Below are positions 38,538-61,200 of a stretch of 64,000 nucleotides of DNA, in pieces (within the stretch, counting starts at the first letter, position 1; every line of letters begins with the position of its first letter). The DNA lies in assembly GCA_965660855.1 (NCBI GenBank), contig CBFIBM010000003.1, positions 86,382-150,381 of the forward strand, given 5' to 3'. A program made the translations under genes and the position numbers. Below the pieces are notes generated by a model. It saw only the letters and a list, made by a program, of their open reading frames with translations, was not told the origin of the DNA and did no database searches. This DNA comes from an uncultured bacterium (GTDB lineage Bacteria > Fidelibacterota > Marinisomatia > Marinisomatales > UBA1611).

Positions 38538-38655
38538 TTTATGAGTGATATATCGATAGAAAATCGTTATTTTATATAACCTTTATTAATATAAGATTTT
38601 AATAGTACTCACATTTTTTAATAATTTAAAGCTTTTAATATAGTTGGAGGATCTT

Positions 38656-41600: not shown

Positions 41601-41994
41601 TATGATAAATACAATTTCTGCGGGAGATGTGAATGCGGTCCCAGTTACGATTTTAGCTGATAATTTTGGGCAGTTCTCAGGATACTTAAATACAATATCT
41701 ACAGGACCAGTTCCACAAGATTTCCAATTAAATCAGAACTATCCAAACCCATTTAATCCTAGTACAATTATTAGTTATAGCTTACCATACAAGTCAGATG
41801 TGAAGCTGAATGTTTATGATATGAATGGTAAAAGAGTAAATTCATTAGTTAATCAAACTCAAGAAGCTGGCACACATAACATCTCATGGAGAGCGATAGA
41901 CTTTAGAGGAAACTCAATAAGTGCAGGCGTCTATTTATATAAATTAGAAGCTGGTGGAAAAGTATTTACAGAAAAAATGGTATATATGAAATAA
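38656..41994 (+). CDS. giant secreted scaffold-like protein: multiple cohesin-like modules, MAM/choice-of-anchor-J-like and FN3-like modules, type-A T9SS C-terminal sorting domain
   Basis: ATG 38656 follows GGAGG (38646-38650). Repeated modules follow the pattern ...EIIVPVTLENPNSTVGGFQFDF...TRVVFF...GTVVNLHF (also GGLQFDII, LFYFEIMD, YAIEFDIL, ILEFEIQD). The C-terminal domain at 41716-41991 reads QNYPNPFNPSTIISYSLP...VYDMNGKRV...GVYLYKL. Confidence 0.65.
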   Translation: MISMRKYLFKFLIAILPASTVLSNVIISLGDVDVQGYTNEIIVPVTLENPNSTVGGFQFDFSTNDEILTISGVSAIDSENFSSDYNILNNGDTRVVFFTISGDGIESGNAGTVVNLHFDGSDILSGFFSLDAFNLTVSDEDGTIVNSQINDGSITIGTVVSMSATSDSGDINEQVVIDINLNNSGLVGGLQFDIIDTPNYLSVIGLSTTDRSEGFTIEYNELSDGLTRVLMFSPENQNIEIGSGSIASLQMLIAENAYNSNVGVNFENVTITDPIGGIYFTESADSGTVTVTPGYIEEPHNLQAQDGMDAQVLLSWDAPYGPIPPNFEEDFEAGSIPENWNLTTNSSQGWFITQDGSSDFWSIPAHSWYMCSNDDMADDDGSVDYLIMPPLNVSGAENIALNFASYYDGAYGQSAHIAVSTDGSNFTEVAVLDAAAEWVMETVDLSEFSGVPNLYIAFHSNDNGAWASGWAVDDVLVSFALRDSERFLHYNLTEFGQWAMDASKEDVLSQYGGGIPYSMKVDLNNPNINTSRPVTIDAYKVYKSLNNNSDFEEVAEVDGSLTTYLDDDVINSTIYYYYVTAIYPDGSESGPTNTISATPVEWVELSLDNGYSLSGQMDTLDFYINNESDLGLFYFEIMDYPNVLNGLNILSTERTESWALEIADQGDGTIAITGISIGEPLLPGNGPVCRAILYPDAEEEMVVNLSFTSGTSIQDVNYIDLNWTAEGGIYEVGIETQYINLYGGYALSGEETAGSVFMETTQPVYAIEFDILADPPFITGTDINFSELLNLENWTVSGSDLGIGYRVTAYDNTLSNPISPGVRHLADINYNVLDQIPEATIVNISVSDPILADMNNLSMVTETTPHAFYIGTPPAGCTIENATGQLIPGGTGVFEIHMENTETINILEFEIQDMPNNMAVTNITGVGRFEDGTIDGGSGETDEGNIYFLGYDFATAIEPGSGAILEIEVVFNENINNSSIVFMINTISAGDVNAVPVTILADNFGQFSGYLNTISTGPVPQDFQLNQNYPNPFNPSTIISYSLPYKSDVKLNVYDMNGKRVNSLVNQTQEAGTHNISWRAIDFRGNSISAGVYLYKLEAGGKVFTEKMVYMK

Positions 41995-42175: not shown

Positions 42176-45100
42176 TTATTTTAAGTGGATCATTTTTCTT
42201 GAAGAGCTAAACTCTTTTGAATAAATAGATAGGAAATACATTCCAGATGGAACTGGTTTTCCATTATCATTTAATCCATTCCATATGATTTTGTGTTGTC
42301 CAGCTTGTTTAAATTCCTTTAAAGGTTTAAAAACCTCATTACCAGTTATATCATGAATTGCTATCTCAATATACGATGCTAATGGAAGGTCGTACTGAAT
42401 AGTTGTAGTAGGGTTAAATGGATTTGGGTAATTCTGATATAATTCAAATTTGGTGGGTAGCCCATTATAGTCATTTTGATTGAGTAAATTATAATGAATA
42501 ATAAGAGAATACCTTGAAGTTCCAATGATAGGATATGGCTTTAATATTTCGCTAGTAGTTGGATTAAAGCTTCCTCTTGGTTCGATAAAAAGATTTAATC
42601 CACTTGTATTACTAATATCCAATTCATTTCCTATTAAATTGTCTAATAAACTTATTGATATATGGTCAGGTAAACTTAGTTCTAGTAATGACATTGTTGC
42701 ATTTGTTTCATTTGTTACAAAATATCCAGATGAATCAATATTTAAAAATAGTATATCTAATGGAATTGTAATGGATTCTTCATGGTGTAGGGGTAAGTGA
42801 TTTATCTTTAAAGGAATATCATTTGATAAGGTCATAGCAACCAACCGTGGTGAAATCTCTAAAGGTAATAATTTTTTTCCATCTGAAATGTCAGAGTTTA
42901 TATTCCCGTTTATCCCAAATGTTAGATAGACTTCATCGATATAATTGTTCGATGAAAAACTTAAGGTAAGTTTACCCGAGTCCTCATGGTCATTCCTTTG
43001 CCTAATTAATGTACTAGAGCCAGTCGCAATATCTTCTTCTTCAATTGTAAAACTACCTATCCCACCACTTGCTTGAATCCAAAAACCTTGGAATGGAGCA
43101 ATCAAACCATTACTTAAGTCACCGGATGATCCATTCCACATTTTCCAACTTGCAGTAGAATTATCCCAAATCGAAATAACATTTGAAAGATTATTTTTGG
43201 AAATATCATTCCAGCTTATTGTTTTAGTAAATGGATTACCTGCTAAGTAATAATTATCTTGCGGAATAGAACTTTTTGAAACACTTCCAGTATTCTGAGT
43301 GCCAGATAAAAAAAGATCAACAGGAAGATCATTGTTTCCATCAAAATCTATATCATTAAAAACATAAATGAGGAAACCTTGTCCTGCATTTAAAGACTGA
43401 GTTGATATATTCGTAATAGGTGTCCAGCTTTGCTGAGCAAGGTTTAATATCCATATATTTGCATTACCATCCGTAGCATCTCCACCAGATATTCCTTGAA
43501 TCCAAAGCTCATCTAACAAGTCTTCAAATATAGTCCCTGAGACTGGACTACTCAACATTCTAAAACCAGAATTACCACTTATAGTTATATTATGGAGAGG
43601 AATCCAAGTATTTCCAAAAGTAGAACTTAAATCCCAATCATGTCCAGCAGTCCAATTAATATTCCCATCCTCATAAGCGCCAATATCTGGTGAACTACCA
43701 TTATTAGTGTAGGTATCTGTTATTCCAGGTATAGAAATTCCAGCATCAATAAGTGGAGAGCTGGCTGCTGGAGAGAAATCACTATTTGATGTATCAGTTA
43801 AGACACTATTTAATGTTACACTCTCATTATATCCATTCCAATTATTGCTGTATGTTCCAAAATCAATAGTTACATTATTGGTTCTGTGATTTGAAATTTT
43901 GTCTGCAGCATTATTTTTAATGATAGATGTAGAATGATCATCGTTATTAATTTTTAGAACAATAATATCGTTTTTACTTCCGGAGTTTAAAACAGTATTG
44001 TTATATATTTTGTGATTATTTCCTTTTACCATAATCCCGCCACTTTCACAGTTCCACGCTAAATTATGATGCATTATTCCATTTGTTCCGTCAGCAGATC
44101 CGCTATGATCAAATCTCGCACCATACTTCTCTGTATCATGAAGCCAGTTGAACCTACATATAGCCCCATCTTGCTGGTCTTCCATAAATTGAATCATAGA
44201 ACCATCACTTTGTAAGTGGCCTGTATCATACAGATTGTTATATTCTATCAATCCAGCATTCCCAATCATTACAGTAGCAGAACCACCAGTTTTATGAACC
44301 GTATTTTTTCGAAAAACATTGGACGTACCATTCATGCGAATAGTCAGCATGATACTGCTATTATCTGCTACGGAATAATCAATTTTATTAAAATAGCAAT
44401 TATCTAATGTATCTGTTCCACCCCACATCTCTACAGCAGTTCCATCTGTATTCCTGAAAGCACAATTTCTAATAGTACTACCAGAACTACCTGAAGCAAA
44501 TTTTGTCATTTCTGGCTCTGTGTCCACAATTCGTAGCATTCGTTTTGAACAACTAGGATACATGAAGTTACACCCATAAACTAAACAATTATCACCGTTG
44601 GAGAAGTAGACTGTTGTTGCAAAAAACTCTAAATTTTTAATTTGAACATATTTTGACCCTGTAATAGTAAATGCATATGATTGAATTTTTCCTCTAAACT
44701 CTAGTTTATTTGGATTAATTCCATTTTCAGTATAATAATATAGAGAGTCTTGATTGTTGTGGGTATCATACCACCATTCACCACTTTGATCAAGAAATTC
44801 ACGTCGGCCTTCTAAATAATAGTAGTGATGTTTTGTTTTCCAATTTGGAACGGTTGAATAGTTAAAGGTACCCCCTGAGTGATTTGTCACAATCCTAGAC
44901 CATGTTCTAAAAGATCCTAAATTAAGTATAGCAATTGCTTGTTTATTACTCTCATCAAGATCAAAGCCAGTAGAGCTAAGATTAATATTTGTTCCTTGTG
45001 AGTTTGTAAAAGGTTTATCTATAATTGTCCCATTAGAATATGCATTTTCATCATCATCTATTGTTCCTTTTGCCCAAAAATTATCATTGTCCCAAATTGT

Positions 45101-45556
45101 ATCATCATCAAACTTAGCATTTGGCCAACGAGCCATAATTTGTTCTTCCCAATTCACAAATAGTTGCCAAATATCCGATGTTAATTTTGTTCTCCATATA
45201 TTTGAAGATCCAACTTGAGTCCATGATGAGTTTATTGGTATGGTTCCATCCATTATTACTCTTTCATTATTGTAGTTTGTAAATATTATTGCAGACCCTG
45301 AAGAACCATTTAAATTATCGATAGTCACACTTTCATGATATCGACCTTGGCGTATATAACATATATCACCCGAATTCATTACGCTTGCTGCTTTGGAGAC
45401 AGTTTTAAAAGGCTTTGCAAGGGTAGTTCCATTATTCTCATCGTCACCATAAGAGATTGCAACGTAATAGTCAGTAGCTGATAGATGGGTGACGGCTACA
45501 GTAATATAAATAAGTTTTTGTATTGCTGGAGTCAATTTTCTAATCAAAAAAGACAT
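42176..45556 (-). CDS. giant secreted right-handed parallel beta-helix protein with type-A T9SS C-terminal sorting domain
   Basis: The N-terminus DYYVAISYGDDENNGTTLAKPFKTVSKAA..GDICYIRQGRYHE is typical of pectate-lyase-fold proteins. Repeated N/G-rich beta-helix rungs follow. The C-terminus (about 42179-42440) reads QNYPNPFNPTTTIQYDLP...IHDITGNEV...GMYFLSI. Confidence 0.65.
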   Translation of the reverse strand: MSFLIRKLTPAIQKLIYITVAVTHLSATDYYVAISYGDDENNGTTLAKPFKTVSKAASVMNSGDICYIRQGRYHESVTIDNLNGSSGSAIIFTNYNNERVIMDGTIPINSSWTQVGSSNIWRTKLTSDIWQLFVNWEEQIMARWPNAKFDDDTIWDNDNFWAKGTIDDDENAYSNGTIIDKPFTNSQGTNINLSSTGFDLDESNKQAIAILNLGSFRTWSRIVTNHSGGTFNYSTVPNWKTKHHYYYLEGRREFLDQSGEWWYDTHNNQDSLYYYTENGINPNKLEFRGKIQSYAFTITGSKYVQIKNLEFFATTVYFSNGDNCLVYGCNFMYPSCSKRMLRIVDTEPEMTKFASGSSGSTIRNCAFRNTDGTAVEMWGGTDTLDNCYFNKIDYSVADNSSIMLTIRMNGTSNVFRKNTVHKTGGSATVMIGNAGLIEYNNLYDTGHLQSDGSMIQFMEDQQDGAICRFNWLHDTEKYGARFDHSGSADGTNGIMHHNLAWNCESGGIMVKGNNHKIYNNTVLNSGSKNDIIVLKINNDDHSTSIIKNNAADKISNHRTNNVTIDFGTYSNNWNGYNESVTLNSVLTDTSNSDFSPAASSPLIDAGISIPGITDTYTNNGSSPDIGAYEDGNINWTAGHDWDLSSTFGNTWIPLHNITISGNSGFRMLSSPVSGTIFEDLLDELWIQGISGGDATDGNANIWILNLAQQSWTPITNISTQSLNAGQGFLIYVFNDIDFDGNNDLPVDLFLSGTQNTGSVSKSSIPQDNYYLAGNPFTKTISWNDISKNNLSNVISIWDNSTASWKMWNGSSGDLSNGLIAPFQGFWIQASGGIGSFTIEEEDIATGSSTLIRQRNDHEDSGKLTLSFSSNNYIDEVYLTFGINGNINSDISDGKKLLPLEISPRLVAMTLSNDIPLKINHLPLHHEESITIPLDILFLNIDSSGYFVTNETNATMSLLELSLPDHISISLLDNLIGNELDISNTSGLNLFIEPRGSFNPTTSEILKPYPIIGTSRYSLIIHYNLLNQNDYNGLPTKFELYQNYPNPFNPTTTIQYDLPLASYIEIAIHDITGNEVFKPLKEFKQAGQHKIIWNGLNDNGKPVPSGMYFLSIYSKEFSSSRKMIHLK

Positions 45557-46266: not shown

Positions 46267-48096
46267 ATGATAGATAATAAATTTTATACTTTAGTAATAA
46301 TGTTTTTATTTAGTCAAGTAGTAATATGCTCGACTGAAGAATTTGATGAAAAGCCAACCACAAGGAATCCTGATTTTGCATTAATAGATTCTTTAGTCGA
46401 TTATAAATATGCACAACCTGAAAGAGCTATTACATTTGCAAGGACGGTCTTGCAAAGAAAGAAATATGCTACTGGAGGTTTTCCAAAGATCGAAAGCGCA
46501 TTCTATAATCATTTAGGTGAAATTTATCTTCGAATGAATCTACCTTCACAAGCTTTATCTTATTTTATTGAAGCAAAAAGGTTGCTCCCTAAGACTAAAA
46601 CTCCATGGCTAGATGTTCAATTTGGAAATGTCTATTACAATCAAGATATGATGATAAAGGCAAAAGAAGCTTATGGGAAAGCTCTTGATATTTTTTCTAA
46701 AACTAAAATTTCTGGAGATAGACTCGATGGAAAAAAGACGGGTGGAAACTCCATTGCAGGAATTGCAACGTGTTATAGCAATCTTGGTAAGATAGAAATA
46801 CAATTAAAAAATTATGAATCTGCATTATCATATTTTGAATTAGCTTTGGAAATTAGAAAAGATTTTTATGATAATTTGGATAGCAATAGGGACATTCAAT
46901 TTAACGTTTTAACGGGTGTACTGTACCAGTATTATTTGCTTGCAGAACTATATCATATTTGGGAAATGGATGATTTAGCTATGGAAAAAATTTCTTTAAT
47001 TGATAGTATAGCTATTCCCATTTATAATAAAAATAATCTGGATCCACTTCCTAGCCAAGATAAAGGGTTAAGGTTGATTTATCGTGTATTAGGTCTATCA
47101 AACGATATGAAAATAATTATTAAAACAAATGAAAAAAAATATAAACAAGCTAAACAAGCATCTATTTTAGCAAATATGTTTTTGAAAGATTGGCCTATTT
47201 ATCTTTCTAGAAGCTATTCAAATAGTGCAAGGATGTATTTTGAGCAAGATAGTTTATATAAATCATTGGAACATATCGATGCAGGGATTCGGGTGTGTCA
47301 ATTAAACGGTTTAGGCTTTGAAGAATTGGAACTCCTCAAATACAAAATGGAATTATTAGAAAAAAGCAATTTAAACAAAAGTGCAATTGATATTGCATCA
47401 AAAATATTAGATAAGAAGATCATTATTGAAAAGATGCAAATGTCTGATATGGTAGAGAGCGTTGAGATTAAATCTGAATTATACCAAAGTAGAAATGAGC
47501 TTTTAAAATCAAAAAGAAGACAAACCCTACTTCAGATTCTAATAGGTGTTTTAATATTAATTACTGGCTTAATTATAATTTCTTATAGAAATAAAAAAAG
47601 ATATTCTGAGCAAATTGCAATTATCAATGAGCAAGAAAATCAGATTACTCAAGTTGAATTGAAAAATAAAGAAGCTGAACTAGTTAATATCTCTACTTTT
47701 GCTCTATCAAAAAATGACCTTTTAATTAATATTATTAAAGAATTAGAATATCACATAACTCTCATAAATGATAAGGATGATCAAAAATCTTTAAAACCAT
47801 TAAAAAAGAAAATTCAGAGCTTTATTGATGATGGTATAGATTGGGAGGATTATAAACTTCAATTTTCTAATGTTTTTCCTAATTTTGTCGACTCATTGAT
47901 AGCAAATAATCCAGATATTACAAATAATGATATCAAGTTATGTTGTTATCTAAAGATGAATATGAATACAAAAGATATAGCGCAGCTTTTTGGCTTAACT
48001 GTCAGAGCCATAGAGAATAAACGATATAGACTTAGGAAAAAGCTTTCATTAGAAAAAGATGTTAGTCTTATGTCCTTTATAAATAGCTTAAAATAG
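46267..48096 (+). CDS. membrane-spanning TPR-repeat regulator with C-terminal LuxR/GerE-type HTH
   Basis: N-terminal hydrophobic segment, about 380 aa of TPR-like helices, TM helix LLQILIGVLILITGLIIISY, a coiled coil, then NNDIKLCCYLKMNMNTKDIAQLFGLTVRAIENKRYRLRKKL (LuxR-type HTH). Confidence 0.7.
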   Translation: MIDNKFYTLVIMFLFSQVVICSTEEFDEKPTTRNPDFALIDSLVDYKYAQPERAITFARTVLQRKKYATGGFPKIESAFYNHLGEIYLRMNLPSQALSYFIEAKRLLPKTKTPWLDVQFGNVYYNQDMMIKAKEAYGKALDIFSKTKISGDRLDGKKTGGNSIAGIATCYSNLGKIEIQLKNYESALSYFELALEIRKDFYDNLDSNRDIQFNVLTGVLYQYYLLAELYHIWEMDDLAMEKISLIDSIAIPIYNKNNLDPLPSQDKGLRLIYRVLGLSNDMKIIIKTNEKKYKQAKQASILANMFLKDWPIYLSRSYSNSARMYFEQDSLYKSLEHIDAGIRVCQLNGLGFEELELLKYKMELLEKSNLNKSAIDIASKILDKKIIIEKMQMSDMVESVEIKSELYQSRNELLKSKRRQTLLQILIGVLILITGLIIISYRNKKRYSEQIAIINEQENQITQVELKNKEAELVNISTFALSKNDLLINIIKELEYHITLINDKDDQKSLKPLKKKIQSFIDDGIDWEDYKLQFSNVFPNFVDSLIANNPDITNNDIKLCCYLKMNMNTKDIAQLFGLTVRAIENKRYRLRKKLSLEKDVSLMSFINSLK

Positions 48097-49996: not shown

Positions 49997-51436
49997 ATGA
50001 AAAAAGTAGAAGTCTATTTTCTAATCAATCTTGGTGCTATACTTAGCCTGTTTGCTATTGAAGGTGAGCTGTCTATTTATATGCAAAGACAAGATGATAT
50101 TTTAAAGAATGTTGCTCAAGATAAGCTTCAAACGCTTGTTGAAATAAGCAATGTTGAATCAAATTATGATGATTCCGATTATTACAGGTTATTTTTCGAT
50201 GTTGAAGGACAATATGAACAAGGTTCAATCGAGTTTAATCCTAGTTTTACTACTCCAATTGTAGAGGTTGATGGCGACTCGATAAAAGTAGATGATTCAT
50301 ATGTATGGGAATTGGATTCTGTTAATATCGAGCCTTATACAGAAGAGGGGGATAAAAATAGATATGTAGCTAAGGTCAAGCTTGCATCCATTGAGGATAA
50401 CTATCTAAATCAACCCTTTGATATAAACCTAGGTGTGAATTTCATTCCCGCTATTGACACTGTTACTTACGCAAAATGGACAAAGGCGTTTGGAGATTAC
50501 ACAGTTACAGACAAATTGTTGAAGATAATCGATGATGAAGTTTCCTCAAAAGGAAGCTTTGAAATGGAGAGGGAATTTGACACCCCGGTAACACTGATTT
50601 ATATGGATGGTCAGCAAGCAGAGTTTTTTGTTTTGTTTGATAAAGAAAAGTATACTGTGTTAAGAGGTTTGGATTGGGAGATTCCGTTCAGTATTGGTGG
50701 GGTGAATTCTGAAGCTGATTTTGATATTGAGATATCAAGTGGCAAAGATTTAGTAAAAGAGTCTCAACCAGGGTTGCCAAGATCATTTATCAAAGGTAAA
50801 GGTACGAGTGATGGAACTGTTGAAATTGTTGGGCTGAGGAAAAGAGATAAAAAATCTAGTATTACTAAGGCTAAGATAGTAGTAGTGGATCCACAGTATA
50901 GTTCTCCAACTGAAGACAAAGAAATTTACATTGGAGAGCAGTATGTTTTTGATAGCAGAGTTAAAGATGTAGACAGAGATAGAATTTCTGTGAAAATTTC
51001 TGGATCTGCGGTAAACTCAAAAACTTTTAACTCTTACGAAGCAAAATTAAAACCTAAAAGTCGAGGAAAAGTTAAATTCCAAACTTTTGTTGATGGGAAA
51101 GCTGTAAAAGGATTATTTCGTGAAGTTTCTGTAAAGAAAATTCCACCGCCTAAGCTTGAGTTTAAGCGTTTAGGAAAAGGATCAAATAATATGATGGTTA
51201 CAGTTACAACATATGGAAATAATAATGGTAAAAAAGCTGTAGTCCCTCTCTCTGGTATTTATGGAAAACTAGACGAAGAGCAAGCTGAAAAACGGGTTGG
51301 AAATCGAAGAGTTGTTAAATACAGCTTTGAAATGGACGAGCCACAATTTGGAACAACCACTGAGATAAGAATAAAAGTTGTGGATAAATATAAAGCAGAA
51401 ACTGTCTCAGACAATGAATTTGAATATTATGATTAA
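49997..51436 (+). CDS. bitopic protein (N-terminal TM plus ~440-aa periplasmic Ig-like domains), GldM/PorM-like (tentative)
   Basis: Start is 9 nt after the GldL-like gene. The TM YFLINLGAILSLFAIEGEL can be compared with GldM MINLMYLVFIAMLALNVS. The late motif FREVSVKKIPPPKLEF resembles the GldM C-terminal F.V..iP.P motif. Confidence 0.4.
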   Translation: MKKVEVYFLINLGAILSLFAIEGELSIYMQRQDDILKNVAQDKLQTLVEISNVESNYDDSDYYRLFFDVEGQYEQGSIEFNPSFTTPIVEVDGDSIKVDDSYVWELDSVNIEPYTEEGDKNRYVAKVKLASIEDNYLNQPFDINLGVNFIPAIDTVTYAKWTKAFGDYTVTDKLLKIIDDEVSSKGSFEMEREFDTPVTLIYMDGQQAEFFVLFDKEKYTVLRGLDWEIPFSIGGVNSEADFDIEISSGKDLVKESQPGLPRSFIKGKGTSDGTVEIVGLRKRDKKSSITKAKIVVVDPQYSSPTEDKEIYIGEQYVFDSRVKDVDRDRISVKISGSAVNSKTFNSYEAKLKPKSRGKVKFQTFVDGKAVKGLFREVSVKKIPPPKLEFKRLGKGSNNMMVTVTTYGNNNGKKAVVPLSGIYGKLDEEQAEKRVGNRRVVKYSFEMDEPQFGTTTEIRIKVVDKYKAETVSDNEFEYYD

Positions 51437-53174
51437 AAAACACCATATTTCTACTCTCTTATTTTTAAGTAGCACTCTATTATTTGGTCAAAAATCAATC
51501 TACTGGGAAGTAGCTGATCCTGTTGTGAACAGCGAGTTCATCGAATCTTATATTAATAGATTGATTGAGGTTGATAAATTTGAGCAAAATACCATTCAAG
51601 CTTCTCATACAATCATTGTCCAAATGGATATTGAAAATGATAAAATTAGTTTAGAAAAACTCAAAGCTAAAAATTATCAAATGGGAGAGTACCAATCTTT
51701 TGATATGGAAGAAATTGAAAAGATGGATCCTGTCCAGATTAATACATTAATGTCGCGAGAGTACAAGTGGAAAGATGTAAGTCGAAGAGATTTGTCTGAG
51801 TTAGAAGCTTTTAGTACTGTAGATAATGTATTTCAAGAGCGTAGTTTTAAAGATGCTAGAGATGCATTTTGGTGGTCGAATTCTCAAATAAGCGTCAGTA
51901 CTGCTCAGAAGGTTTTTATTAGACAGAAAAGTAATAGTCTTGCATTTCGTTTGGAGAAGGGTTTTCTTGACCTTGGACTGTCAAGAGAATTGTCTGAAAA
52001 TTTGATTTTAGGCATTTCAAATGATGTTGTGAGCTCATATCTCATTATACCTGGAGCAACTAATTCTACAGCTATGGGTATTGGGCATCCTTTAGAAGGA
52101 AATTTAGGCTTTGGCTTTAAGTTTGACACTCATACTCTTGGTGGTCAGGTTAACTATATGGATGTCGATGGTCAGGATTATGACTATTCAAAAGTTTTTA
52201 GCAGAAAACATTTGGTGATCCCATCAAGTAGTGGACTATTATATTGGAGCAATACTTTCCAAATTAATAGAAATGTTGATTCCAAGTATGGTAATAAAGT
52301 TAAAGATCAAAAAAAAGAAAAAGCCAAAGCAGAAAAAGCAATCTCGAAATCTAGAGAATGGAATACTGGATCAGACAAATTTAATGGAGTATTTCAGGTA
52401 ATGGAAGAAGAGACTGTTACTTTTATTGTTGATAGAGATAATAAAGCACACAAGTTAGCAGAAAAGGGTAAAGAGTGGACGACAAAATCAGGAAGTGTTG
52501 TTAAAGCAGTTTTAACAAATAGAAACCCCAAAGAGATTACCCTGTTAAGAGCAAAGGATAATTTTAAAATTGTACTAAAATTAAGAGATCTATCCGAAGA
52601 GGATCAATCTTTTGTTGAAAGTTTAAAGTGGGATGGTAAAAAAACAAAAACTCTATCTATTGAGCAACTAAATCCCTCCGATCAACAGCTTATTAGAGCA
52701 GCGACAGGGACTGTGAAGGCAAGAAGCGGTAAAGGTCGTGAGCTAAAAGTCAGTGAACCATTTGCTTCAATGCGGTTGAAAGCAGGTCTTGCATTTACTC
52801 AATTTGTTCACGCTAGAGTTTTTGAAGATAATTTAGTATCGGTAATTGATCGTACGTCTGGCTCTAATTCATTAGGGTTTTATGCAAAAGTTGAGGGAGT
52901 GACAGATAGTAAAAGCTCCAAAGGGTATATCCAAGTAAATGTAGCAGGTAATGGATTTAAGGCATACGGGTTGGGTTTAGAGCATAATGTATGGAAAATG
53001 GTTAATTTAGGAGTGGATTTGACTCTTTACCCTGATAACAGTTTTATCGAATTTAAAAATGATCGAAATAATCCAGAAGATAAATGGAGATGGTATCCAG
53101 GGAGTCGCCCAGATGAAAATGGAAAGGGCGGAGGAACTCTTTTCTTTTCTCCTTATATTACTGTGAACTTCTAA
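51429..53174 (+). CDS. secreted probable outer-membrane beta-barrel protein with internal tandem SHD1-like domains
   Basis: ATG 51429 (ATGA-type overlap with the upstream stop) gives signal peptide MIKKHHISTLLFLSSTLLFGQ. C-terminal beta-signal LFFSPYITVNF. 52353-52625 encodes REWNTGSDKFNGVF... and KEWTTKSGSVVKAVL...IVLKLRDLSEEDQSFVESL. Confidence 0.5.
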   Translation: MIKKHHISTLLFLSSTLLFGQKSIYWEVADPVVNSEFIESYINRLIEVDKFEQNTIQASHTIIVQMDIENDKISLEKLKAKNYQMGEYQSFDMEEIEKMDPVQINTLMSREYKWKDVSRRDLSELEAFSTVDNVFQERSFKDARDAFWWSNSQISVSTAQKVFIRQKSNSLAFRLEKGFLDLGLSRELSENLILGISNDVVSSYLIIPGATNSTAMGIGHPLEGNLGFGFKFDTHTLGGQVNYMDVDGQDYDYSKVFSRKHLVIPSSSGLLYWSNTFQINRNVDSKYGNKVKDQKKEKAKAEKAISKSREWNTGSDKFNGVFQVMEEETVTFIVDRDNKAHKLAEKGKEWTTKSGSVVKAVLTNRNPKEITLLRAKDNFKIVLKLRDLSEEDQSFVESLKWDGKKTKTLSIEQLNPSDQQLIRAATGTVKARSGKGRELKVSEPFASMRLKAGLAFTQFVHARVFEDNLVSVIDRTSGSNSLGFYAKVEGVTDSKSSKGYIQVNVAGNGFKAYGLGLEHNVWKMVNLGVDLTLYPDNSFIEFKNDRNNPEDKWRWYPGSRPDENGKGGGTLFFSPYITVNF

Positions 53175-53187
53175 AAACGGAACTTAT

Positions 53188-55506
53188 ATGACTCTAGTAT
53201 TTAAATATTTTACAATTTTAGCTTTTTCATCAACGCTTATTTTTAGTCAAAATGAGTTAAAATTAAAAAAAGACAAAGCGCAGGTTACCGAGGATGAAAG
53301 CATTAAAATAGATGTCTTAAAAAATGACGGAATTAAAGATAAAAGTAACCTAATAATTAAGATTGAAAAACAAGCTCAAAAAGGAGTTGCCGTACTATCT
53401 GGGAAAATGATCGAGTATACCCCCAATAGTAATGAAAGTGGATCAGATAGTTTTACATACTCAGTTGATATTGGTACTGGAGCTGGTACAGCTGAAGTCT
53501 CTGTCAAAATTAAATCAGTAAATGATGAACCCACCGGACTTAGTCTTTCTAGTAAGACAATTAAAGAAAATAAACCTGAAGGGACATTAATTGGTAAGCT
53601 AATTGTTGATGATCCAGATATGAATGATACTTTCAACTTTGGTCTATCTAGAGATAGTAAAGCAGATTTTCGAATTGATGGTGAAAAGTTACTTTCAAAA
53701 AGATCATTTGATTATGAGGAGCAAAGTAAATATAATTTATCAATACAAGTATCAGACGCAGCAGGTGAATCTAATGTTTTTGATATAGCAGTGAATATTG
53801 AAAATGAAAATGAAGCTCCAAAACTCATTGGGGATAAAGACTTAAACATTAATCACCCGGAAGATGCGGGAAAAATTGTGGCAAGAATTCAAGTAGAAGA
53901 CCCTGATTCTGACCAATCGGGTCTTAAATACAAGCTTACTAAGAGTCTAGATAAGGAACATTTTAAAATCACTCGTAGTGGCGATATCTCATTTTTAAAA
54001 GAGCCGGATTTTGAAAACCCAAAAGATAAAAATAAAAATAATACTTATAATGTTTCATACAAAGTAACAGATAGTAAAGACCCTTCCCTTTCCATTGAAG
54101 GAGAAGTTACTATTAATCTTCTTGATGCTGAGGAAACAGAAGTTAAGGCTTTGGACAAAAGGAAATTTATTGCTTGGTCTGTAGATCATCAACCATATCA
54201 CATTTTGATGGAAGAAGCCGTAGAGGATTATTTGAAATTAAAATATTCTGATGATTCTATTGATGAGGCAGTTGATGATGGATATGGTGCTAGTATTCAG
54301 GAACTAAAGCCAACAGATCAAATTATTATTGTTCAGCAAAAAGGTAATAATAGTGAAATTTATGAAATTTGGTATGGTAACGGATTAGACTATACCATAA
54401 TCGATAGAGAAAAAGTGGATTGGATTTTTAGTCAGGATATACAATCTGTTCTTGTCACAAAAGATCAATATCTTAATAGTGATTCAGAGACAGTATTTCA
54501 TAAAAGTGAAAGTGATAGATTGATGGCTAGCTATGGAAATGAATTTTCTGTCTGGCACTCCAATAATTTCAAAATGTCACTTGCTTCCTTTTCTATGAGA
54601 TCGAATTTATTGCAATACGCATCTAATATGCGTGTAGGAAATAAATTAATAGGAATTCCAGGTGAGCTTGGTGCAGGGGCAGAATTTGGTATTGCGACAC
54701 AACGATCAGAATTTGGTTTTCGATTGCCAATTTCATTTGATTTTGCAACATCTAATTCTGATGGTATTGATTTACCAGAAGCTGATAATTTAGGGTTGTA
54801 TGCACGTGGAAATATTGAAAATTTATTTTCAACTAATACTGATTTTCATGGATTGATTGGGTTTTCTTTTTATTCACCAAGTGTTGGTAATGTTTTAAGT
54901 TCCCCTAAAGATTTAGAAAGTGACAGTACAAAGTGGGGGGCTATAAACGACTCCACTGAAAATATTAATATTTTAGATAGCTATGCTTTATTTGGTGCGA
55001 CTGTTCAAGTTCCAGTAAATGCACCTTTTATTGGTCGCTTAACCGCAACACCGGGTATTCATTACATAAAGATAGCCCACCGTTTAAAAGATAAGCGCTA
55101 TTCAGCAGATGATGACTTGTATGAAAGGCTTTATTATAATCAAATGTTTGAGCAAAATGATAGTACTTTGACTTTCAATTCAGAAAAATTAAATGATGAA
55201 AATGAATCTTTTACATCTCTATCATCTTTTTACTTACGATTTGATCTACTAGGGAAAATAGGGGAAAAGCCTAACGTAATTGAGAGATTATCATTCTTGG
55301 ATTTCATTAAAATTTCCAATGTCCCTTTTTATGAGGTTTCATTACAGTTTATTCCCGGTTTTAATACAATCAGCACACTGAATGTGAATTTCTCAGACCA
55401 ATTTGGCATGTCTTTGACACGTTTGTCTTCCGATGATGCATTAAAAGGAAATTGGATGCCAGAATCAAAACTTTGGTTTGGATTTAATTATCGTGCTAAT
55501 TTTTAA
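53188..55506 (+). CDS. secreted protein: bacterial cadherin-like repeats fused to a probable C-terminal outer-membrane beta-barrel
   Basis: Signal peptide. IDVLKNDG...YTPNSNESGSDSFTYSV. Two cadherin repeats end in VNDEP and ENEAP. The C-terminal ~440 aa show alternating strands and end in LWFGFNYRANF. Confidence 0.5.
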   Translation: MTLVFKYFTILAFSSTLIFSQNELKLKKDKAQVTEDESIKIDVLKNDGIKDKSNLIIKIEKQAQKGVAVLSGKMIEYTPNSNESGSDSFTYSVDIGTGAGTAEVSVKIKSVNDEPTGLSLSSKTIKENKPEGTLIGKLIVDDPDMNDTFNFGLSRDSKADFRIDGEKLLSKRSFDYEEQSKYNLSIQVSDAAGESNVFDIAVNIENENEAPKLIGDKDLNINHPEDAGKIVARIQVEDPDSDQSGLKYKLTKSLDKEHFKITRSGDISFLKEPDFENPKDKNKNNTYNVSYKVTDSKDPSLSIEGEVTINLLDAEETEVKALDKRKFIAWSVDHQPYHILMEEAVEDYLKLKYSDDSIDEAVDDGYGASIQELKPTDQIIIVQQKGNNSEIYEIWYGNGLDYTIIDREKVDWIFSQDIQSVLVTKDQYLNSDSETVFHKSESDRLMASYGNEFSVWHSNNFKMSLASFSMRSNLLQYASNMRVGNKLIGIPGELGAGAEFGIATQRSEFGFRLPISFDFATSNSDGIDLPEADNLGLYARGNIENLFSTNTDFHGLIGFSFYSPSVGNVLSSPKDLESDSTKWGAINDSTENINILDSYALFGATVQVPVNAPFIGRLTATPGIHYIKIAHRLKDKRYSADDDLYERLYYNQMFEQNDSTLTFNSEKLNDENESFTSLSSFYLRFDLLGKIGEKPNVIERLSFLDFIKISNVPFYEVSLQFIPGFNTISTLNVNFSDQFGMSLTRLSSDDALKGNWMPESKLWFGFNYRANF

Positions 55507-55577: not shown

Positions 55578-58250
55578 ATGCTTTTTAGAACTTGTTACAT
55601 AATACTTTTTCTTTTTTCTTTACTTAATGCACAAACATCTATTCTTGACTCTAAAGAGCTTGGTATTACAAAACCTAAGAAGCTCATAGAAGCAATTCTT
55701 GGTGATAATATTGAGGCTCCAGGTGGATCTGCAGTTATCCTAGATGCTTCAAAATCAAGGCCTAACAATGGATCCTTGACCTTCGAGTGGTCTTTTCCTG
55801 AGAATCTTATTTTTGAAGATGATTATGAATATGATAAATCCCAAACAGTAATAACTTATTCATCTGAAGAATTAAAAGAGGTTCCTTTTCAAAATAAAAC
55901 TAGTATTAAAACACTTGTTACTAGAAATCAATATATAGAATTAGACCTTCCAAATTATACAACAGCTAAAACTTTTTCAATTATTCTCAAAGTTCAAAAC
56001 CATGTAGGTATGAAAGACTTTGATACATTATTTGTTAATCTAATACCTCCTATTAAAACTAGCTTACAAGTGGTTGATGTTGGAGATGAATATTTATCCA
56101 TTCAGGATAGCTCTGAGTCCGTTGGAGTCGAGTTAACAGAAACTATAATAGATGAATCGTTACTATCTATACAACCAATTAATAAAAATTTATTTAAACC
56201 AAGAGAAATTGATTTGATTAACTCTCTTATTTTTAATGAGATTAAAAACAAAGGATTTGATAATGTTTTAAATCCAAATAGGTACATATCAGAAGAGATA
56301 AAATTAAATAGACTTTATGAAAGATTTAAAATTGTTAAGGATACTGTAATAACTGAAAATAATCCTAGTGCACCAGCTGGACCATCTCTTATCCAAAAAA
56401 TCCAAAGTTTTTTTATTAAAGATAAAAATAATGATTCCCTAAAAACCACAACAACAGAAGATACATTAAATATTGTAATAAAAGGAAAAGATGACTCTAA
56501 TCTTGAAGTCGTATTAGCTGATGAAGAGGATCCTGATCTAAAAATAGATTCATTAAGTAATGACTCAACTGTAGTAACAGACTCAATCAATACGGAAAAT
56601 TTATTTAGCCTAGGGTTTTTTAAGTCCTTTTTTCAAAAATTTTCTAAAAAACAGGAAAATAATGTTATCTTAAAAGATAGTACCTCTTTAATTGTCGATG
56701 ATTCTTCCGTTGTTAAAAATATTACAAATAATGATATTCCTGTAACGGATATATCAGAAGAACTAAATAAAACCATTGAATATGATTCATCCCTTGTTTC
56801 AGCTGTTACCTATGATACCACTATTGTTGTAGACACACTGAAATATAATGTGGTCGTGGACACAACACTTTTCTATAATTTTTCCTGTGCCTCAGACTCT
56901 TGTGCAGGAGAAAATGCAATTTTAGAAGGAGCTGGTAAAGTTTTAACTTGGGGTCTAAACGATGATTCTGAGTTGGAGTTCCGTTATTTCTCAGTAGCAA
57001 ATCTTTTTAACGAAGATGTTCATTTTGATTGGGTAATCAGCAATGTCCAATTAAACCCTAGCTCAAAAGAAAAAATAATTTATCCAACCACTCTAGCAAC
57101 AAGTATCACTGGTAGTCTTTTTGTCGGAGAAGCAAACTCAAATAATATATTAGAAATAACAAAAGACCAGAATGCTCAAATAGTTGTAGAAGGGAATATT
57201 TTGAATGAAGAGCTTTCAAAACCATCAGGAATGGAAATAGGTTCAAACCAGGAAATATATTTTTCTGATAAATATAATAATAGAATTCTAATTAATTCTG
57301 GAGAAAGCTTCAGAACTCTTGTCAACAGTAAGAGTAAGTATAATAATCAAGATAACTCTTCTCCAATGGACCCTTCTTCAGTACGAATAGGACCAAATGG
57401 AGCAGTTTATGTATTATTCGATAAAGATGGATCGGTTTATAAGATTGCTAAAAGAGAAATTAGCACTATTCTAAATCCTAATTTACTAGATGGGATTGAT
57501 GATTTTGCGATTAATTCAAAAGGTGAAATTTTCATTTTAAGTACTGAAATGAAAAAAATCTATAAAATCATCAATAAAAATGAAATTATAACTATAGCTG
57601 GTTTAGACCGTCCTGATAAGAATAGAAAAATATATATGAAGAGGAAAGGTCCTAATTCTTTGAGCTTTTCAGGAACTGCATTAGAACCTGCTCTTATGAA
57701 TGATGTTCCTTCAAAAAAAATTCCATTTGGAAACCCTGTTAGTATTGATATTGATTTAAATGATAATCTTTACATTGCAGATGATGAATATGGAACCATT
57801 AGGAGAATTGATAAAGAGGGTACAATAAGCACATTTTTTGGGCCTAGCGATGAATTAAAAGGTGTTTCTCAAATTAGACTAACAAATGAAGAAAATTTTC
57901 AGATATATATTTCAAAACCATTTGCCCATGAATTAAAAAAGATTAGTTTGAGTGAAATTTCTCCATGGGTTAAAAAATCAACCATTGATCACCCTAGGTA
58001 TATAATTCAAGAAAAGGGTGTTTATGGACTTGAGGATCAATTAAATGAATCTCTCTCGTTCACATTAGATGAGATCTTACCAAAAGTAAGAAAAACGTTT
58101 TTGGAGCGAATTAGTAATCAAAATAAAAAGGTTACTAAATTTATGGGAAAGAATCCACTTTTCTGTGGTCTTTTATTACTACTTGTGAATCAAGGTGTCG
58201 CAGCTAGCCTTGAAGATCCACCTAAATTACCTCCAGATTTTCCATTTTAA
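55578..58250 (+). CDS. secreted PKD-like plus NHL-repeat beta-propeller protein with C-terminal hydrophobic anchor
   Basis: Signal peptide. APGGSAVILDASKSRPNNGSLTFEWSF (PKD-like). A low-complexity S/T/D/N linker. NHL-like blades (PSGMEIGSNQEIYFSDKYNNRIL, PVSIDIDLNDNLYIADDEYGTIRRI). The C-terminus reads PLFCGLLLLLVNQGVAASLEDPPKLPPDFPF. Confidence 0.5.
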   Translation: MLFRTCYIILFLFSLLNAQTSILDSKELGITKPKKLIEAILGDNIEAPGGSAVILDASKSRPNNGSLTFEWSFPENLIFEDDYEYDKSQTVITYSSEELKEVPFQNKTSIKTLVTRNQYIELDLPNYTTAKTFSIILKVQNHVGMKDFDTLFVNLIPPIKTSLQVVDVGDEYLSIQDSSESVGVELTETIIDESLLSIQPINKNLFKPREIDLINSLIFNEIKNKGFDNVLNPNRYISEEIKLNRLYERFKIVKDTVITENNPSAPAGPSLIQKIQSFFIKDKNNDSLKTTTTEDTLNIVIKGKDDSNLEVVLADEEDPDLKIDSLSNDSTVVTDSINTENLFSLGFFKSFFQKFSKKQENNVILKDSTSLIVDDSSVVKNITNNDIPVTDISEELNKTIEYDSSLVSAVTYDTTIVVDTLKYNVVVDTTLFYNFSCASDSCAGENAILEGAGKVLTWGLNDDSELEFRYFSVANLFNEDVHFDWVISNVQLNPSSKEKIIYPTTLATSITGSLFVGEANSNNILEITKDQNAQIVVEGNILNEELSKPSGMEIGSNQEIYFSDKYNNRILINSGESFRTLVNSKSKYNNQDNSSPMDPSSVRIGPNGAVYVLFDKDGSVYKIAKREISTILNPNLLDGIDDFAINSKGEIFILSTEMKKIYKIINKNEIITIAGLDRPDKNRKIYMKRKGPNSLSFSGTALEPALMNDVPSKKIPFGNPVSIDIDLNDNLYIADDEYGTIRRIDKEGTISTFFGPSDELKGVSQIRLTNEENFQIYISKPFAHELKKISLSEISPWVKKSTIDHPRYIIQEKGVYGLEDQLNESLSFTLDEILPKVRKTFLERISNQNKKVTKFMGKNPLFCGLLLLLVNQGVAASLEDPPKLPPDFPF

Positions 58251-58298: not shown

Positions 58299-61200
58299 AT
58301 GAATAAGCTCTTATTAATATTTGTTTTATTTACCTATGTCCTTAACGGGCAAAAATATAAAACTAATAATCAAAGTTTATTTAATTCAAAAAATAAAATA
58401 AATACAGCCGAAACTTTAAGTTCTACAGTTCCAAGGTTGCTATCCTATCAAGGCCTCTTAACAAAAACAGATGGCAAAGCAATCAAGGATGGTAGTATAG
58501 AGGTAACTTTTAGGTTATATACATCTTTGGAAGAAGGGGTTCATTTTTGGGAAGAGGTGCAAAATGTTGTTATCGAAGATGGTATCCTCACTGCTGTTTT
58601 AGGAAAGATTATACCAATAGATATCGTTCCTGATGCATCTTTTTTAGAAGTAGAAATAAATGGTACAGTTCTTTCACCTCGCCAAGAAATGACTTCTTCA
58701 TTTTATTCTATTATCTCAGATACTTCAAAATACTCCCAAGGTGGAAATTATTTGGATCTTGATGGTTTACCAGATTTAAATATTTTTGCAAGGAAAGATA
58801 CTCTTAGCAATTACACCCTAATAGATAGCCTTAATCCAGTTGCTTTGAGTGGGGATTATCTTGATTTAGAAAATGTTCCTGATTTATCAGAAGTTCTTCA
58901 AAGTGACACACTTGATTTATACGTGATGATAGATAGCCTTAATTCGTATGTTCTTCAATCAAGTTTAAGTATAGTTGCTTTTTCAAATGACTATTCAGAT
59001 TTAAATAATATTCCTGACCTTAATCAATATGCGACAAAGGATACTTTGACTAATTTCATTTCAGAAGACACCTTATCCTTCTATGCTTTGAACACAGAAT
59101 TAGGTTCTATTGCATTGCAAGATACTAATAATGTTAATATTACAGGTGGATCCATTTCTGGTGTTTCTGATATTTCGGTTGCAGATGGAGGTACAGGCGC
59201 TTCTGATATAGCTACTGCGAGAGAAAATTTAGGTCTTGAAATTGGTACAGATGTTCAAGGATACGATGCAGATCTAGCAGATCTAGCAGACGGTTCCTTA
59301 TCAGCATCAAAAGTACAATTTTTAGAAAATATTAGTTCCGATGTTCAAGAGCAAATTAATAATTTAGGTTTAAACAGTTTAATGGACCTTGGTGTGGTCG
59401 CTGACTCCTCTGAGTTAAATTTTGTTGATGGAGTTACATCAAATATTCAAACTCAATTAGATAATAAACAAGAAATAAACTCGAACCTTACCTCGATAGT
59501 CAATCTAGATCAAACAGATGGAAATTTCATTGTGTCTGATGGAAATAACTGGACGGTTGAAAACGGAGCAGATGCGAGGGCATCCTTGAATTTAGGTTCA
59601 ATGTCGACTCAACAATCAGATAATGTCACAATCTCGGGTGGAAGAGTGACGGGCATATTAGACATTGCGATTGCAGACGGGGGAACTGGCGCATCAGATA
59701 TCGCTACGGCAAGAGAAAATTTAGGACTCCAAATTGGTGCTGATATTCAAGGCTATGATGCTGACCTTGCTGATATATCAAGTTTATCGCAAGCTGAGGG
59801 TAACATCATTGTTTCCAATGGGAGTAATTGGACCGCCGAATCTGGTTCTGATGCTAGAGAATCTCTTGGATTATCTATAGGGAGTGATATCCAAGGCTAT
59901 GATGCAGATTTAGAAGATTTAGCAGATGGAACCCTATCTTCTAGTAAAATAGAGAATAATGAATACTTTATTACATCCTCAGGAAATGCCAATGAGGTTT
60001 GGACTTCTGATGGAAGCGGAGCAGGAACATGGGCCACTTCTACCAATACCCTCACAGGAGCAGGGTCTACAATAGATACAGAGGATTTATCAGCATCTCA
60101 AGCGGTGGTTACGGATAGTGATGGCAAAATAGCGGTATCAGATGTAACGGTCACTGAATTAAATTATGTGGATGGAGTAACATCAAGCATCCAGGCTCAA
60201 TTAGATGCAAAACAATTAGCTGATTCTGATTTAGATGATTTAGCTGTATTACCTCAAAGTAATGGTAATATTATCGTCTCGGATGGAAGTAATTGGACTG
60301 CCGAATCTGGTTCTGATGCTAGGGAATCTCTTGGATTATCTATAGGGAGCGATGTTCAGGGTTATGATGCTGATTTAACAGATTTAGCAGATGGAACCCT
60401 GTCTGCTAGTAAAGTAGAGAACAATGAGTATTTTATTACATCTCCTGGTAACGCTGGTGAAGTATGGATTTCAGATGGTTCTGGTGCAGGTGAATGGGGT
60501 CTATCAGCAGGCATAACCGGAGCCGCATCTACCGTGGATACGGAAGATTTGACAGGGAAGAGAACGCTTATATCAAATATTGATGGTAAAATTGCAATAT
60601 CTGACATTACATCCCAAGAACTAGGTTATTTAGATGATGTATCAAGTAATGTACAAACTCAATTAGATGGTAAACAGCCTTTGAATTCTAACTTAACAGA
60701 CTTAGTTGGATTAACTCAAAGTGATGGGAATTTTATTATTTCTGATGGAGTAAATTGGACTGTAGAAAAGGGAGCAGATGCCCGGGCATCTTTGGGGTTA
60801 GGCTCTTTATCTACACAAGAATCTAGTGCCGTAGCTATTACTGGGGGTTCTATAGCCGGTATTGCAGATATTACCATTTCTGATGGTGGAACTGGAGCTT
60901 CAGATATAGCAACTGCAAGGGAAAATTTAGGGCTTGAAATTGGAACAGATATTCAAGGTTACGATGCAGACCTAGCAGACCTAGCAGATGGAACTCTATC
61001 CGCAAGTAAAGTTGAAAATAATGAATACTTTATTACTTCTTCAGGCTCAGCGAATGAGGTGTGGACATCCGATGGAAGTGGTGCTGGAACATGGGCCACT
61101 TCTACAAACGCCCTCACTGGAGCGGGATCTACGATAGATACAGAAAATTTATCAGCATCTGTAGTTGTAGTTACAGATAGTAATGGTAAAATAGCAGTAT

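Follow-up and report, generated by a model that had tools for sequence, protein, structure and literature searches.

An apparently nested SHD1-like cassette in a putative outer-membrane barrel protein of Marinimicrobia

The host gene and its insert

The subject of this analysis is a gene for a secreted protein, hereafter the host, in a 64,000-nucleotide stretch of DNA from an uncultured bacterium (contig CBFIBM010000003.1; the whole stretch is called the window), together with an insert in that protein whose modules resemble the Sla1 homology domain 1 (SHD1). The open reading frame (ORF) was listed from a TTG codon at position 51378, but translation probably begins with the ATG at 51429, as in the gene call of an orthologous contig, which gives a protein of 581 amino acids (Table 1). 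A preliminary description of this DNA had placed two tandem SHD1-like modules at 52353-52625 of the forward strand, inserted in a putative outer-membrane barrel, and the peptides quoted there are the exact translation of that segment, REWNTGSDKFNGVFQVMEEETVTFIVDRDNKAHKLAEKGKEWTTKSGSVVKAVLTNRNPKEITLLRAKDNFKIVLKLRDLSEEDQSFVESL. The signal peptide (MIKKHHISTLLFLSSTLLFGQ) and the C-terminal β-signal that it had ascribed to the host were both found. The signal peptide is the least conserved N-terminal stretch of the protein, and the C-terminus reads TLFFSPYITVNF, the terminal N-F of which is invariant across 28 orthologs. The host therefore combines a signal peptide with an aromatic C-terminal β-signal (FFSPYITVNF), the pair of features that marks substrates of the β-barrel assembly machinery (BAM).

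A full-length model of the host was built with AlphaFold2 (AF2) from a 45-sequence alignment (predicted local distance difference test, pLDDT, 79.9; predicted template modelling score, pTM, 0.53). In this model, an α/β domain at residues ~23-150 precedes amphipathic strands at residues 154-284 and 440-580, between which the insert is placed. The number of amphipathic strands in the model is 14-17, and its C-terminal half has high pLDDT values; an amphipathic alternation in the second half of the host can also be read from the sequence. The insert is flanked by the long strands 262-284 and 440-464, to which it is joined via low-confidence linkers. None of the Pfam and NCBIfam families, known outer-membrane protein families included, matched the host protein, and a Foldseek search with the model returned weak matches to Vibrio cholerae OmpT/OmpU, TodX/FadL and OmpT/Pla in addition to Spt5 KOW (E about 1e-4, TM-score <= 0.26). 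Because of the signal peptide, the invariant C-terminal VNF and the weak barrel matches, along with the β-rich character of the model, an outer-membrane barrel is the best reading of the host and is regarded here as probable.

Table 1. Coordinates of the host gene, the parts of its insert and the neighbouring genes, numbered from the first nucleotide of the window.
Feature	Position	Strand	Remarks
Host gene, 581-aa secreted protein	51429-53174	+	ORF; α/β N-terminal domain and β-barrel-like body
Signal peptide, residues 1-21, MIKKHHISTLLFLSSTLLFGQ	51429-51491	+	Read from sequence; helix 2-16 in AF2 model
N-terminal α/β domain, residues 22-150	51492-51878	+	AF2 model; most conserved part of the host, mean column identity 0.87
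Barrel-like body, first half, residues 151-284	51879-52280	+	DSSP of AF2 model; closes with long strand 262-284
Whole insert, ~155 residues (residues 285-439)	about 52281-52745	+	Includes Lys-rich helix and linker
Lys-rich helix opening the insert, residues 285-308, KVKDQKKEKAKAEKAISKS	52281-52352	+	Helix 286-305 in model; column identity 0.83
SHD1-like module A, N-terminal half, strands 1-3, REWNTGSDKFNGVFQVMEEETVTFIVDR	52353-52436	+	Strands 309-313, 316-326, 329-334
Basic linker helix, DNKAHKLAEK	52437-52466	+	Helix 338-346; K339, K342, A344 and K346 invariant or nearly so
SHD1-like module B, complete, GKEWTTKSGS...LRDLSEEDQSFVESL	52467-52625	+	Four strands, 3-10 turn, C-terminal helix
SHD1-like module A, C-terminal half, KWDGKKTKTLSIEQLNPSDQQLIRAA (WDGKKTKTLSIEQLNPSDQQLIRAA)	52626-52706	+	Strand 406-410 (strand 4), LSxxDQ helix 416-426
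Gly/Lys-rich flexible linker closing the insert, TGTVKARSGKGRE	52707-52745	+	pLDDT < 50 at residues 429-438; column identity 0.84
Barrel-like body, second half, residues 440-581	52746-53171	+	Long strand 440-464 to C-terminal FFSPYITVNF; high-confidence strands, pLDDT about 86-95
Upstream partners: 132-aa protein with two transmembrane (TM) helices and 479-aa protein with N-terminal TM helix	49589-51436	+	Same order in orthologous locus and beside insert-less P0135
Downstream partner, 772-aa, Big_9/cadherin repeats and C-terminal region ending GFNYRANF	53188-55506	+	Conserved beside host
609-aa protein, N-terminal hydrophobic segment, tetratricopeptide (TPR) repeats, C-terminal LuxR/sigma70-region-4-type helix-turn-helix (HTH)	46267-48096	+	
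890-aa NHL-repeat protein with signal peptide	55578-58250	+	C-terminal hydrophobic segment, then proline-rich tail (LFCGLLLLLVNQGVAASLEDPPKLPPDFPF)
1714-aa secreted protein	58299-63443	+	No confident domain
Convergent pair of type IX secretion system (T9SS)-type cargo proteins, about 1120 aa each	38644-41994 and 42176-45556	+ and -	FlgD_ig/Por_Secre_tail C-terminal domains

Close homologs of the host in marine metagenomes number 275, and the named ones belong to Candidatus Marinimicrobia/Neomarinimicrobiota. The insert-bearing form is present in 29 GTDB species representatives at 55-83% identity; all of the taxon-named records are Marinimicrobia/Neomarinimicrobiota and the remainder are labelled "uncultured bacterium", and judging by the taxon-named records this form is restricted to that group. 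In an exhaustive homolog search, which covered 1.84 billion representative proteins, many homologs of 420-447 amino acids aligned with the host over two separate segments (residues ~12-282 and the C-terminal part) and were devoid of residues ~283-440; the Lys-rich helix that opens the insert is likewise missing from them. A profile built from 19 distant insert-less homologs gave only four matches in a word-indexed database, and representatives from the exhaustive search were used for the structure alignment instead. In a direct comparison, a cassette-bearing homolog (P0122, 592 aa) and one that has none (P0123, 446 aa) show identities of 62% upstream and 53% downstream of the site, where 151 amino acids in the former correspond to 20 in the latter. 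The block of ~155 residues is a discrete, portable insert with a plus/minus polymorphism. One further homolog (P0131) has the appearance of a host gene that was truncated or misassembled. Regarding the proposed insertion in an outer-membrane barrel-like host, the clean insertion/deletion, the β-rich flanks and both terminal signals support it, whereas the matches to known barrel folds are weak.

Likeness to SHD1 and arrangement of the modules

Neither the window protein nor its 91-residue segment was matched by any Pfam family, SHD1 included (PF03983; gathering threshold, 23.7 bits), even at E <= 10, or by any NCBIfam family. In contrast, a full-length ortholog that is 70% identical to the host (P0052) was matched at 24.9 bits over positions 4-62 of the 67 in the hidden Markov model (HMM). 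Among the 22 orthologous cassettes of an alignment designated A4, Pfam SHD1 matched 11, with a best E of 1.4e-6, and any other family recurred in four members or fewer; member 1 of the alignment gave no Pfam SHD1 match. When the A4 profile was searched against all PDB sequences, the SHD1 domain of Sla1 (2HBP) was retrieved at E 0.003 over nearly the whole length of 2HBP; the match covers positions 36-91. The fold was addressed with a model of the cassette alone (pLDDT 86.8), for which a Foldseek search of 350,542 PDB chains again gave 2HBP as the top match (probability 1.00; TM-score 0.69, normalised to 2HBP; E 8.8e-3). Superposition of 2HBP on the second module, module B, gave a root-mean-square deviation of 1.5 Å over 54 columns with 30% identity, and the next matches were the SH3-like folds of Hfq, a designed SH3 barrel, Tudor and KOW. 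The signature residues kept in the cassette are W311, W350, S354-G355-S356, L388-S389-x-x-D392, F395 and D418-Q419.

These results point to module B as a divergent yet genuine SHD1-like domain, whose homology is detectable at the level of the family, and the models give it an SH3-like fold. A chance likeness, in which module B would be a generic small β-domain unrelated to Sla1 SHD1, could account for the missing Pfam match of the window copy, for the modest E-values of the profile and Foldseek searches and for the other SH3-like folds close behind in the Foldseek list. However, sequence and structure searches, which are independent of each other, converge on the single entry 2HBP, and half of the orthologous cassettes match Pfam SHD1 with no comparable recurrence of another family. 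A fortuitous resemblance is thus largely refuted and is considered extremely unlikely. The SHD1 likeness noted in the preliminary description holds for this second module, which at the level of the family has both an SHD1 match and a predicted SH3-like fold.

In the same search of PDB sequences, two phage structural proteins scored slightly above Sla1, at E about 8e-4 and positions 44-94, namely chain 6 of 36za ("inner-peripheral baseplate spoke gp32") and chain B of 11fg ("capsid latch gp146"). SHD1-like modules may also be present in phage virions; Foldseek against viral structures gave nothing significant.

With respect to the order of the modules, the evidence departs from the tandem arrangement originally described. 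The first "module" (REWNTGSDKFNGVFQVMEEETVTFIV) comprises three strands only and is devoid of the LSxxD helix, and the segment that follows the second module (KWDGKKTKTLSIEQLNPSDQQLIRAA) resembles the missing strand 4 and helix. The order of elements is the same in both AF2 models: three strands, helix 338-346, a four-strand-plus-helix unit at 348-398, strand 406-410 and helix 416-426. The two halves of the putative module A were spliced in all 22 sequences (alignment A5) and compared with the alignment of module B (A6) by hhalign, and the two proved collinear over 49 of 53 columns (probability 92%, E 5.6e-7), with a score of 33.0 versus 9.5 +/- 2.1 (maximum 17.4) for 100 column shuffles. The C-terminal half of module A scored 27.2 against module B by itself (E 1.6e-6). 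Pfam SHD1 matched three of the 22 spliced A sequences, and the module-B HMM, run on six-frame translations, gave weak sub-matches in many orthologs, with positions 2-35 falling on the N-terminal half and positions 34-54 on the C-terminal half. The spliced module A profile gave no SHD1 match in the PDB, and module A is tentatively assigned as SHD1-like by its likeness to module B. The best reading is that the SHD1-like barrel B (52467-52625) is inserted between strands 3 and 4 of barrel A (52353-52436 and 52626-52706); the feature accordingly runs 81 nucleotides beyond the end at 52625 that had been assigned to it. No further copies of the cassette were found in the window or in 41 fetched loci with the module-B HMM on six-frame translations.

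A second host, the membrane side and the proposed docking role

The cassette is also present in a secretin (P0172) with the domain order STN, Secretin_N, cassette and Secretin. This copy is about 36% identical to that of the window and has a nested layout likewise, and the closest solved relatives of the protein are PilQ of Myxococcus xanthus and V. cholerae. The same architecture is repeated on an independent contig at 86% identity, and a 58%-identical secretin has 19 residues at the place of the 139 of P0172. Based on the domain order of secretins (PMC10653833), the site between N3 and the Pfam Secretin domain corresponds to the β-lip region. A stand-alone, nested version of the cassette with 161 amino acids (P0186; L040 662-1147) was found adjacent to glpK on a contig of 1.3 kb; it has no obvious signal peptide, and its gene overlaps the 3' end of the glycerol kinase gene by 8 nucleotides.

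The position in the secretin raises the possibility of a purely structural role as cap or gate, in which the cassette would have no ligand of its own and form a globular lid over the channel mouth, comparable to an enlarged Vibrio-type cap gate. Cap gates are expansions of the β-lip, of about 80 residues versus 51-60 (PMC8563730), and the cassette replaces 19 residues at this lip in the secretin, while in the host it lies on flexible linkers between two long strands. Contact with the barrel would be anticipated for a gate; the linkers, however, have pLDDT values below 50, and the cassette folds equally well alone. Furthermore, a stand-alone version occurs without any channel, and the kept SHD1 signature residues (W, SGS and LSxxD) suggest that a function at the level of the domain has been retained. 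A purely structural lid is therefore considered unlikely.

An insert-less PilQ-like secretin (L038 7518-9194) has an N-terminal extension of ~135 residues, which is absent from the cassette-bearing secretin (P0172 / L035). This complementary pattern of extension and cassette, with one example of each, hints at a functional substitution. An identification of the extension as an AMIN domain was considered and has no Pfam support. The same pattern bears on another alternative, in which the cassette would act as a cell-wall or glycan anchor in the manner of SH3b or AMIN, holding peptidoglycan on the periplasmic side or a surface polysaccharide or surface layer (S-layer) on the external side and thereby fixing the channels in the envelope. 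The SH3-like fold and the strongly basic character of the insert (pI 9.7, with 36 Lys/Arg in 164 residues) would suit such a role, and the fact that two outer-membrane channels with no relationship to each other carry it points to a generic envelope ligand. On the other hand, neither SH3b nor AMIN nor any family that binds peptidoglycan matched the insert, its nearest relative by both sequence and fold is the peptide-binding SHD1 rather than SH3b, and Pfam does not identify the extension of the insert-less secretin as AMIN. An anchoring role is thus regarded as improbable, to about the same degree as the lid.

Periplasm and cell surface are about equally likely as the side of the membrane on which the cassette would lie. 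When strands are counted back from the C-terminus, which is taken as periplasmic by analogy with canonical barrels, and the polar residues 470-475 are treated as an extension, strand 440-464 ascends from the periplasm, and the insert would therefore occupy one of the periplasmic turns of a barrel with 16 strands; this count keeps every other periplasmic turn short. Alternative counts of 12-14 strands put the insert outside; for these, a polar stretch of six residues would have to form a membrane strand, or IEFKNDRNNPEDKWRWY would have to cross the membrane in a single pass. Two parity-consistent topologies remain from the secondary-structure string. Large insertions in outer-membrane proteins are usually external. 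Together with the β-lip site in the secretin and the variability of the cassette, this would favour the surface. The β-lip is described as the extracellular edge of the secretin barrel, where cap gates arise (PMC8563730), and a placement of the cassette in the periplasm on the basis of the secretin context was considered and rejected because the insertion maps to this edge.

Taken together, the insert is best described as a two-domain, SHD1-like cassette between two long strands of an outer-membrane barrel-type protein, which probably serves, with somewhat better than even confidence, as a docking module for a ligand or partner. In the proposed arrangement, the nested SHD1-like pair would be tethered to the rim of the barrel by flexible connections and stand apart from the channel wall, from where it could dock a partner protein or other envelope ligand onto outer-membrane barrels. 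A docking function is put forward because of the homology to a peptide-binding domain, the autonomous folding, the flexible linkers, the kept signature residues and the reuse in an unrelated channel. Several points weigh against this reading. The evidence on the membrane side conflicts between the strand count of the host and the β-lip site of the secretin, and the backing of a transmembrane barrel by Foldseek and by family searches is weak or missing. The window copy falls below every Pfam threshold and the SHD1 E-values are modest throughout, the domain being short. With regard to the nesting, the N-terminal half of module A alone scored 17.2 against module B, which is marginal and level with the shuffle maximum, and the packing of the two A-halves as one domain is proposed from the comparison of spliced sequences. 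Finally, conservation within the host is lowest in the cassette (column identity 0.57-0.72 versus 0.79-0.87 elsewhere), a pattern that would be compatible with a docking surface and equally with a loosely constrained decoration.

The operon and comparison with known systems

The gene order around the host is kept in orthologous contigs: a TPR/HTH protein, a cadherin/He_PIG lipoprotein, the 132-aa two-TM protein, the 479-aa protein and the host are followed on the 3' side by a Big_9/cadherin protein with a barrel-like C-terminal region, an NHL protein and a giant repeat protein. The 609-aa TPR/HTH protein, conserved at the head of the operon, may be its regulator. The core of the operon, which consists of the two-TM protein, the 479-aa protein, the host-family protein and a second barrel-like protein, recurs around P0135, an insert-less homolog, where the partners are 28%, 24% and 48% identical. 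Since an insert-less homolog occupies the same operon, the basic function of the operon is independent of the cassette.

The two upstream partners are also paired at L001 8161-10008 and L003 8077-9999, and they adjoin the host family with or without the cassette. The 132-aa protein has an invariant YGGAA in its first TM helix and an invariant Glu in the second, and the 479-aa protein has an invariant PPPK motif. The layout of the pair recalls that of the GldL/GldM (PorL/PorM) motor pairs, with no support from HMMs, PDB sequences or profiles. That identity is at most a tentative lead, there being no Pfam or NCBIfam match and no PDB match with either single sequences or a three-sequence profile; precomputed Pfam domains were likewise absent among 120 orthologs of the pair. 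In the 772-aa downstream protein, three Big_9/cadherin repeats are fused to a C-terminal region of ~470 amino acids, which corresponds to a stand-alone protein of 422 amino acids in an insert-less locus (L003 11359-12627). From this fusion and the insert in the host it follows that both barrel-like proteins of the operon gained extra modules in this lineage. The host and the downstream barrel-like protein were also considered as paralogs, and this was rejected at an hhalign probability of 1.9%. Further downstream, the hydrophobic segment and proline-rich tail of the 890-aa NHL protein could serve as a C-terminal signal, so far unrecognised, for sorting or anchoring. Orthologs of the 1714-aa protein are annotated with YadA_head among the precomputed Pfam domains (of unmarked grade on one contig and "faint" on the other), and this protein is devoid of the T9SS C-terminal domain seen in the two cargo proteins whose genes immediately precede the operon. 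One of these cargo proteins has a right-handed β-helix, and one sits at the same position in the orthologous contig.

The proximity of the T9SS cargo underlies a further alternative, in which the cassette would be an NPF-motif receptor that reads the PNPFNP at the start of T9SS C-terminal sorting domains, with QNYPNPFNPSTIISY as the candidate peptide, and would thus take part in cargo recognition, as had been speculated at the outset. The C-terminal sorting domains of both cargo proteins do begin with the NYPNPFNP that had been noted, in the form QNYPNPFNP, and NPF occurs only three times in the about 19,800 translated residues of the window. The homology to Sla1 SHD1 and the periplasmic insert, one of the two viable topologies, would also be in line with such a receptor. 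However, searches of Pfam and NCBIfam linked neither the host nor its neighbours in the operon to a T9SS family, Por_Secre_tail being found only in the two adjacent cargo proteins, the genes of which adjoin the operon and lie outside it. YPNPF is a general feature of the T9SS C-terminal-domain class in many phyla, where it forms part of the first strand of a folded Ig-like domain. The same cassette occurs in a PilQ-type secretin, a system that has no C-terminal-domain cargo, and insert-less homologs occupy the same operon. The ligand of Sla1 SHD1 is NPFx(1,2)D (PMC2199253), and the motif of the C-terminal domains, NPFNP[ST]T, has no counterpart of the Asp of NPFxD. Beyond homology and proximity, nothing speaks in favour of NPF recognition of T9SS cargo, which is unsupported and judged highly unlikely. 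Nearly as unlikely is the broader proposal that the cassette is a bacterial receptor for short linear motifs, grafted onto different outer-membrane channels to recruit a common client that bears a peptide signal, the most striking version of which has the PNPF segment of T9SS sorting domains as the signal. If it were true, the recognition of peptide signals by SHD1 would be common to eukaryotic endocytosis and the bacterial envelope.

The favoured reading thus remains that of a docking module whose partner would be a protein or another envelope ligand. The finding is a descriptive one. A delimited, portable cassette with plus/minus variants in two channels offers a clean handle on what a bacterial SHD1 domain binds, and the analysis flags a conserved envelope operon, with two membrane proteins, two barrel-like proteins and giant repeat proteins, in the SAR406/Marinimicrobia, which are abundant uncultured marine bacteria. 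To our knowledge, SHD1 has been characterised only in yeast Sla1. Bacterial members are already listed for the family in Pfam, and no paper on bacterial SHD1 domains was found among the papers searched. The "SHD1" of PMC2018616 is an unrelated domain, the Slp homology domain. The nested double-domain cassette, its insertion in the body of an outer-membrane barrel and in a secretin β-lip, and the natural plus/minus variants appear to be new.

Among known systems, the AMIN domains of PilQ and the SH3b domains are also accessory binding modules on outer-membrane channels (PMC10653833). Those are N-terminal and bind peptidoglycan, in contrast to the cassette, which is internal to the barrel sequence and matches no such family. 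The extended Tudor and Spt5 KOW pairs, which gave longer Foldseek alignments, similarly combine a couple of small SH3-like barrels into a compact unit; these proteins are eukaryotic and nuclear and have no sequence relationship to the cassette, and the likeness is architectural only (TM-score 0.17-0.31). The Vibrio-type cap gate of GspD, like the cassette of P0172, consists of extra residues in the β-lip between the N3 and Secretin domains. However, the cap gate adds about 20-30 hairpin residues, whereas the cassette adds about 139 that would form two autonomous SH3-like domains, and the cassette block is also found in a non-secretin barrel. Finally, module B shares with Sla1 SHD1 (PF03983, 2HBP) the signature R/K-x-W-T...SG...A...V/I-x-L...LS-x-x-D-x-x-F/Y-V and, as predicted, the SH3-like four-strand-plus-helix fold. 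In contrast to the cytosolic, eukaryotic Sla1, the cassette would be secreted to the bacterial envelope, where it apparently forms a nested pair embedded in a β-barrel membrane protein.

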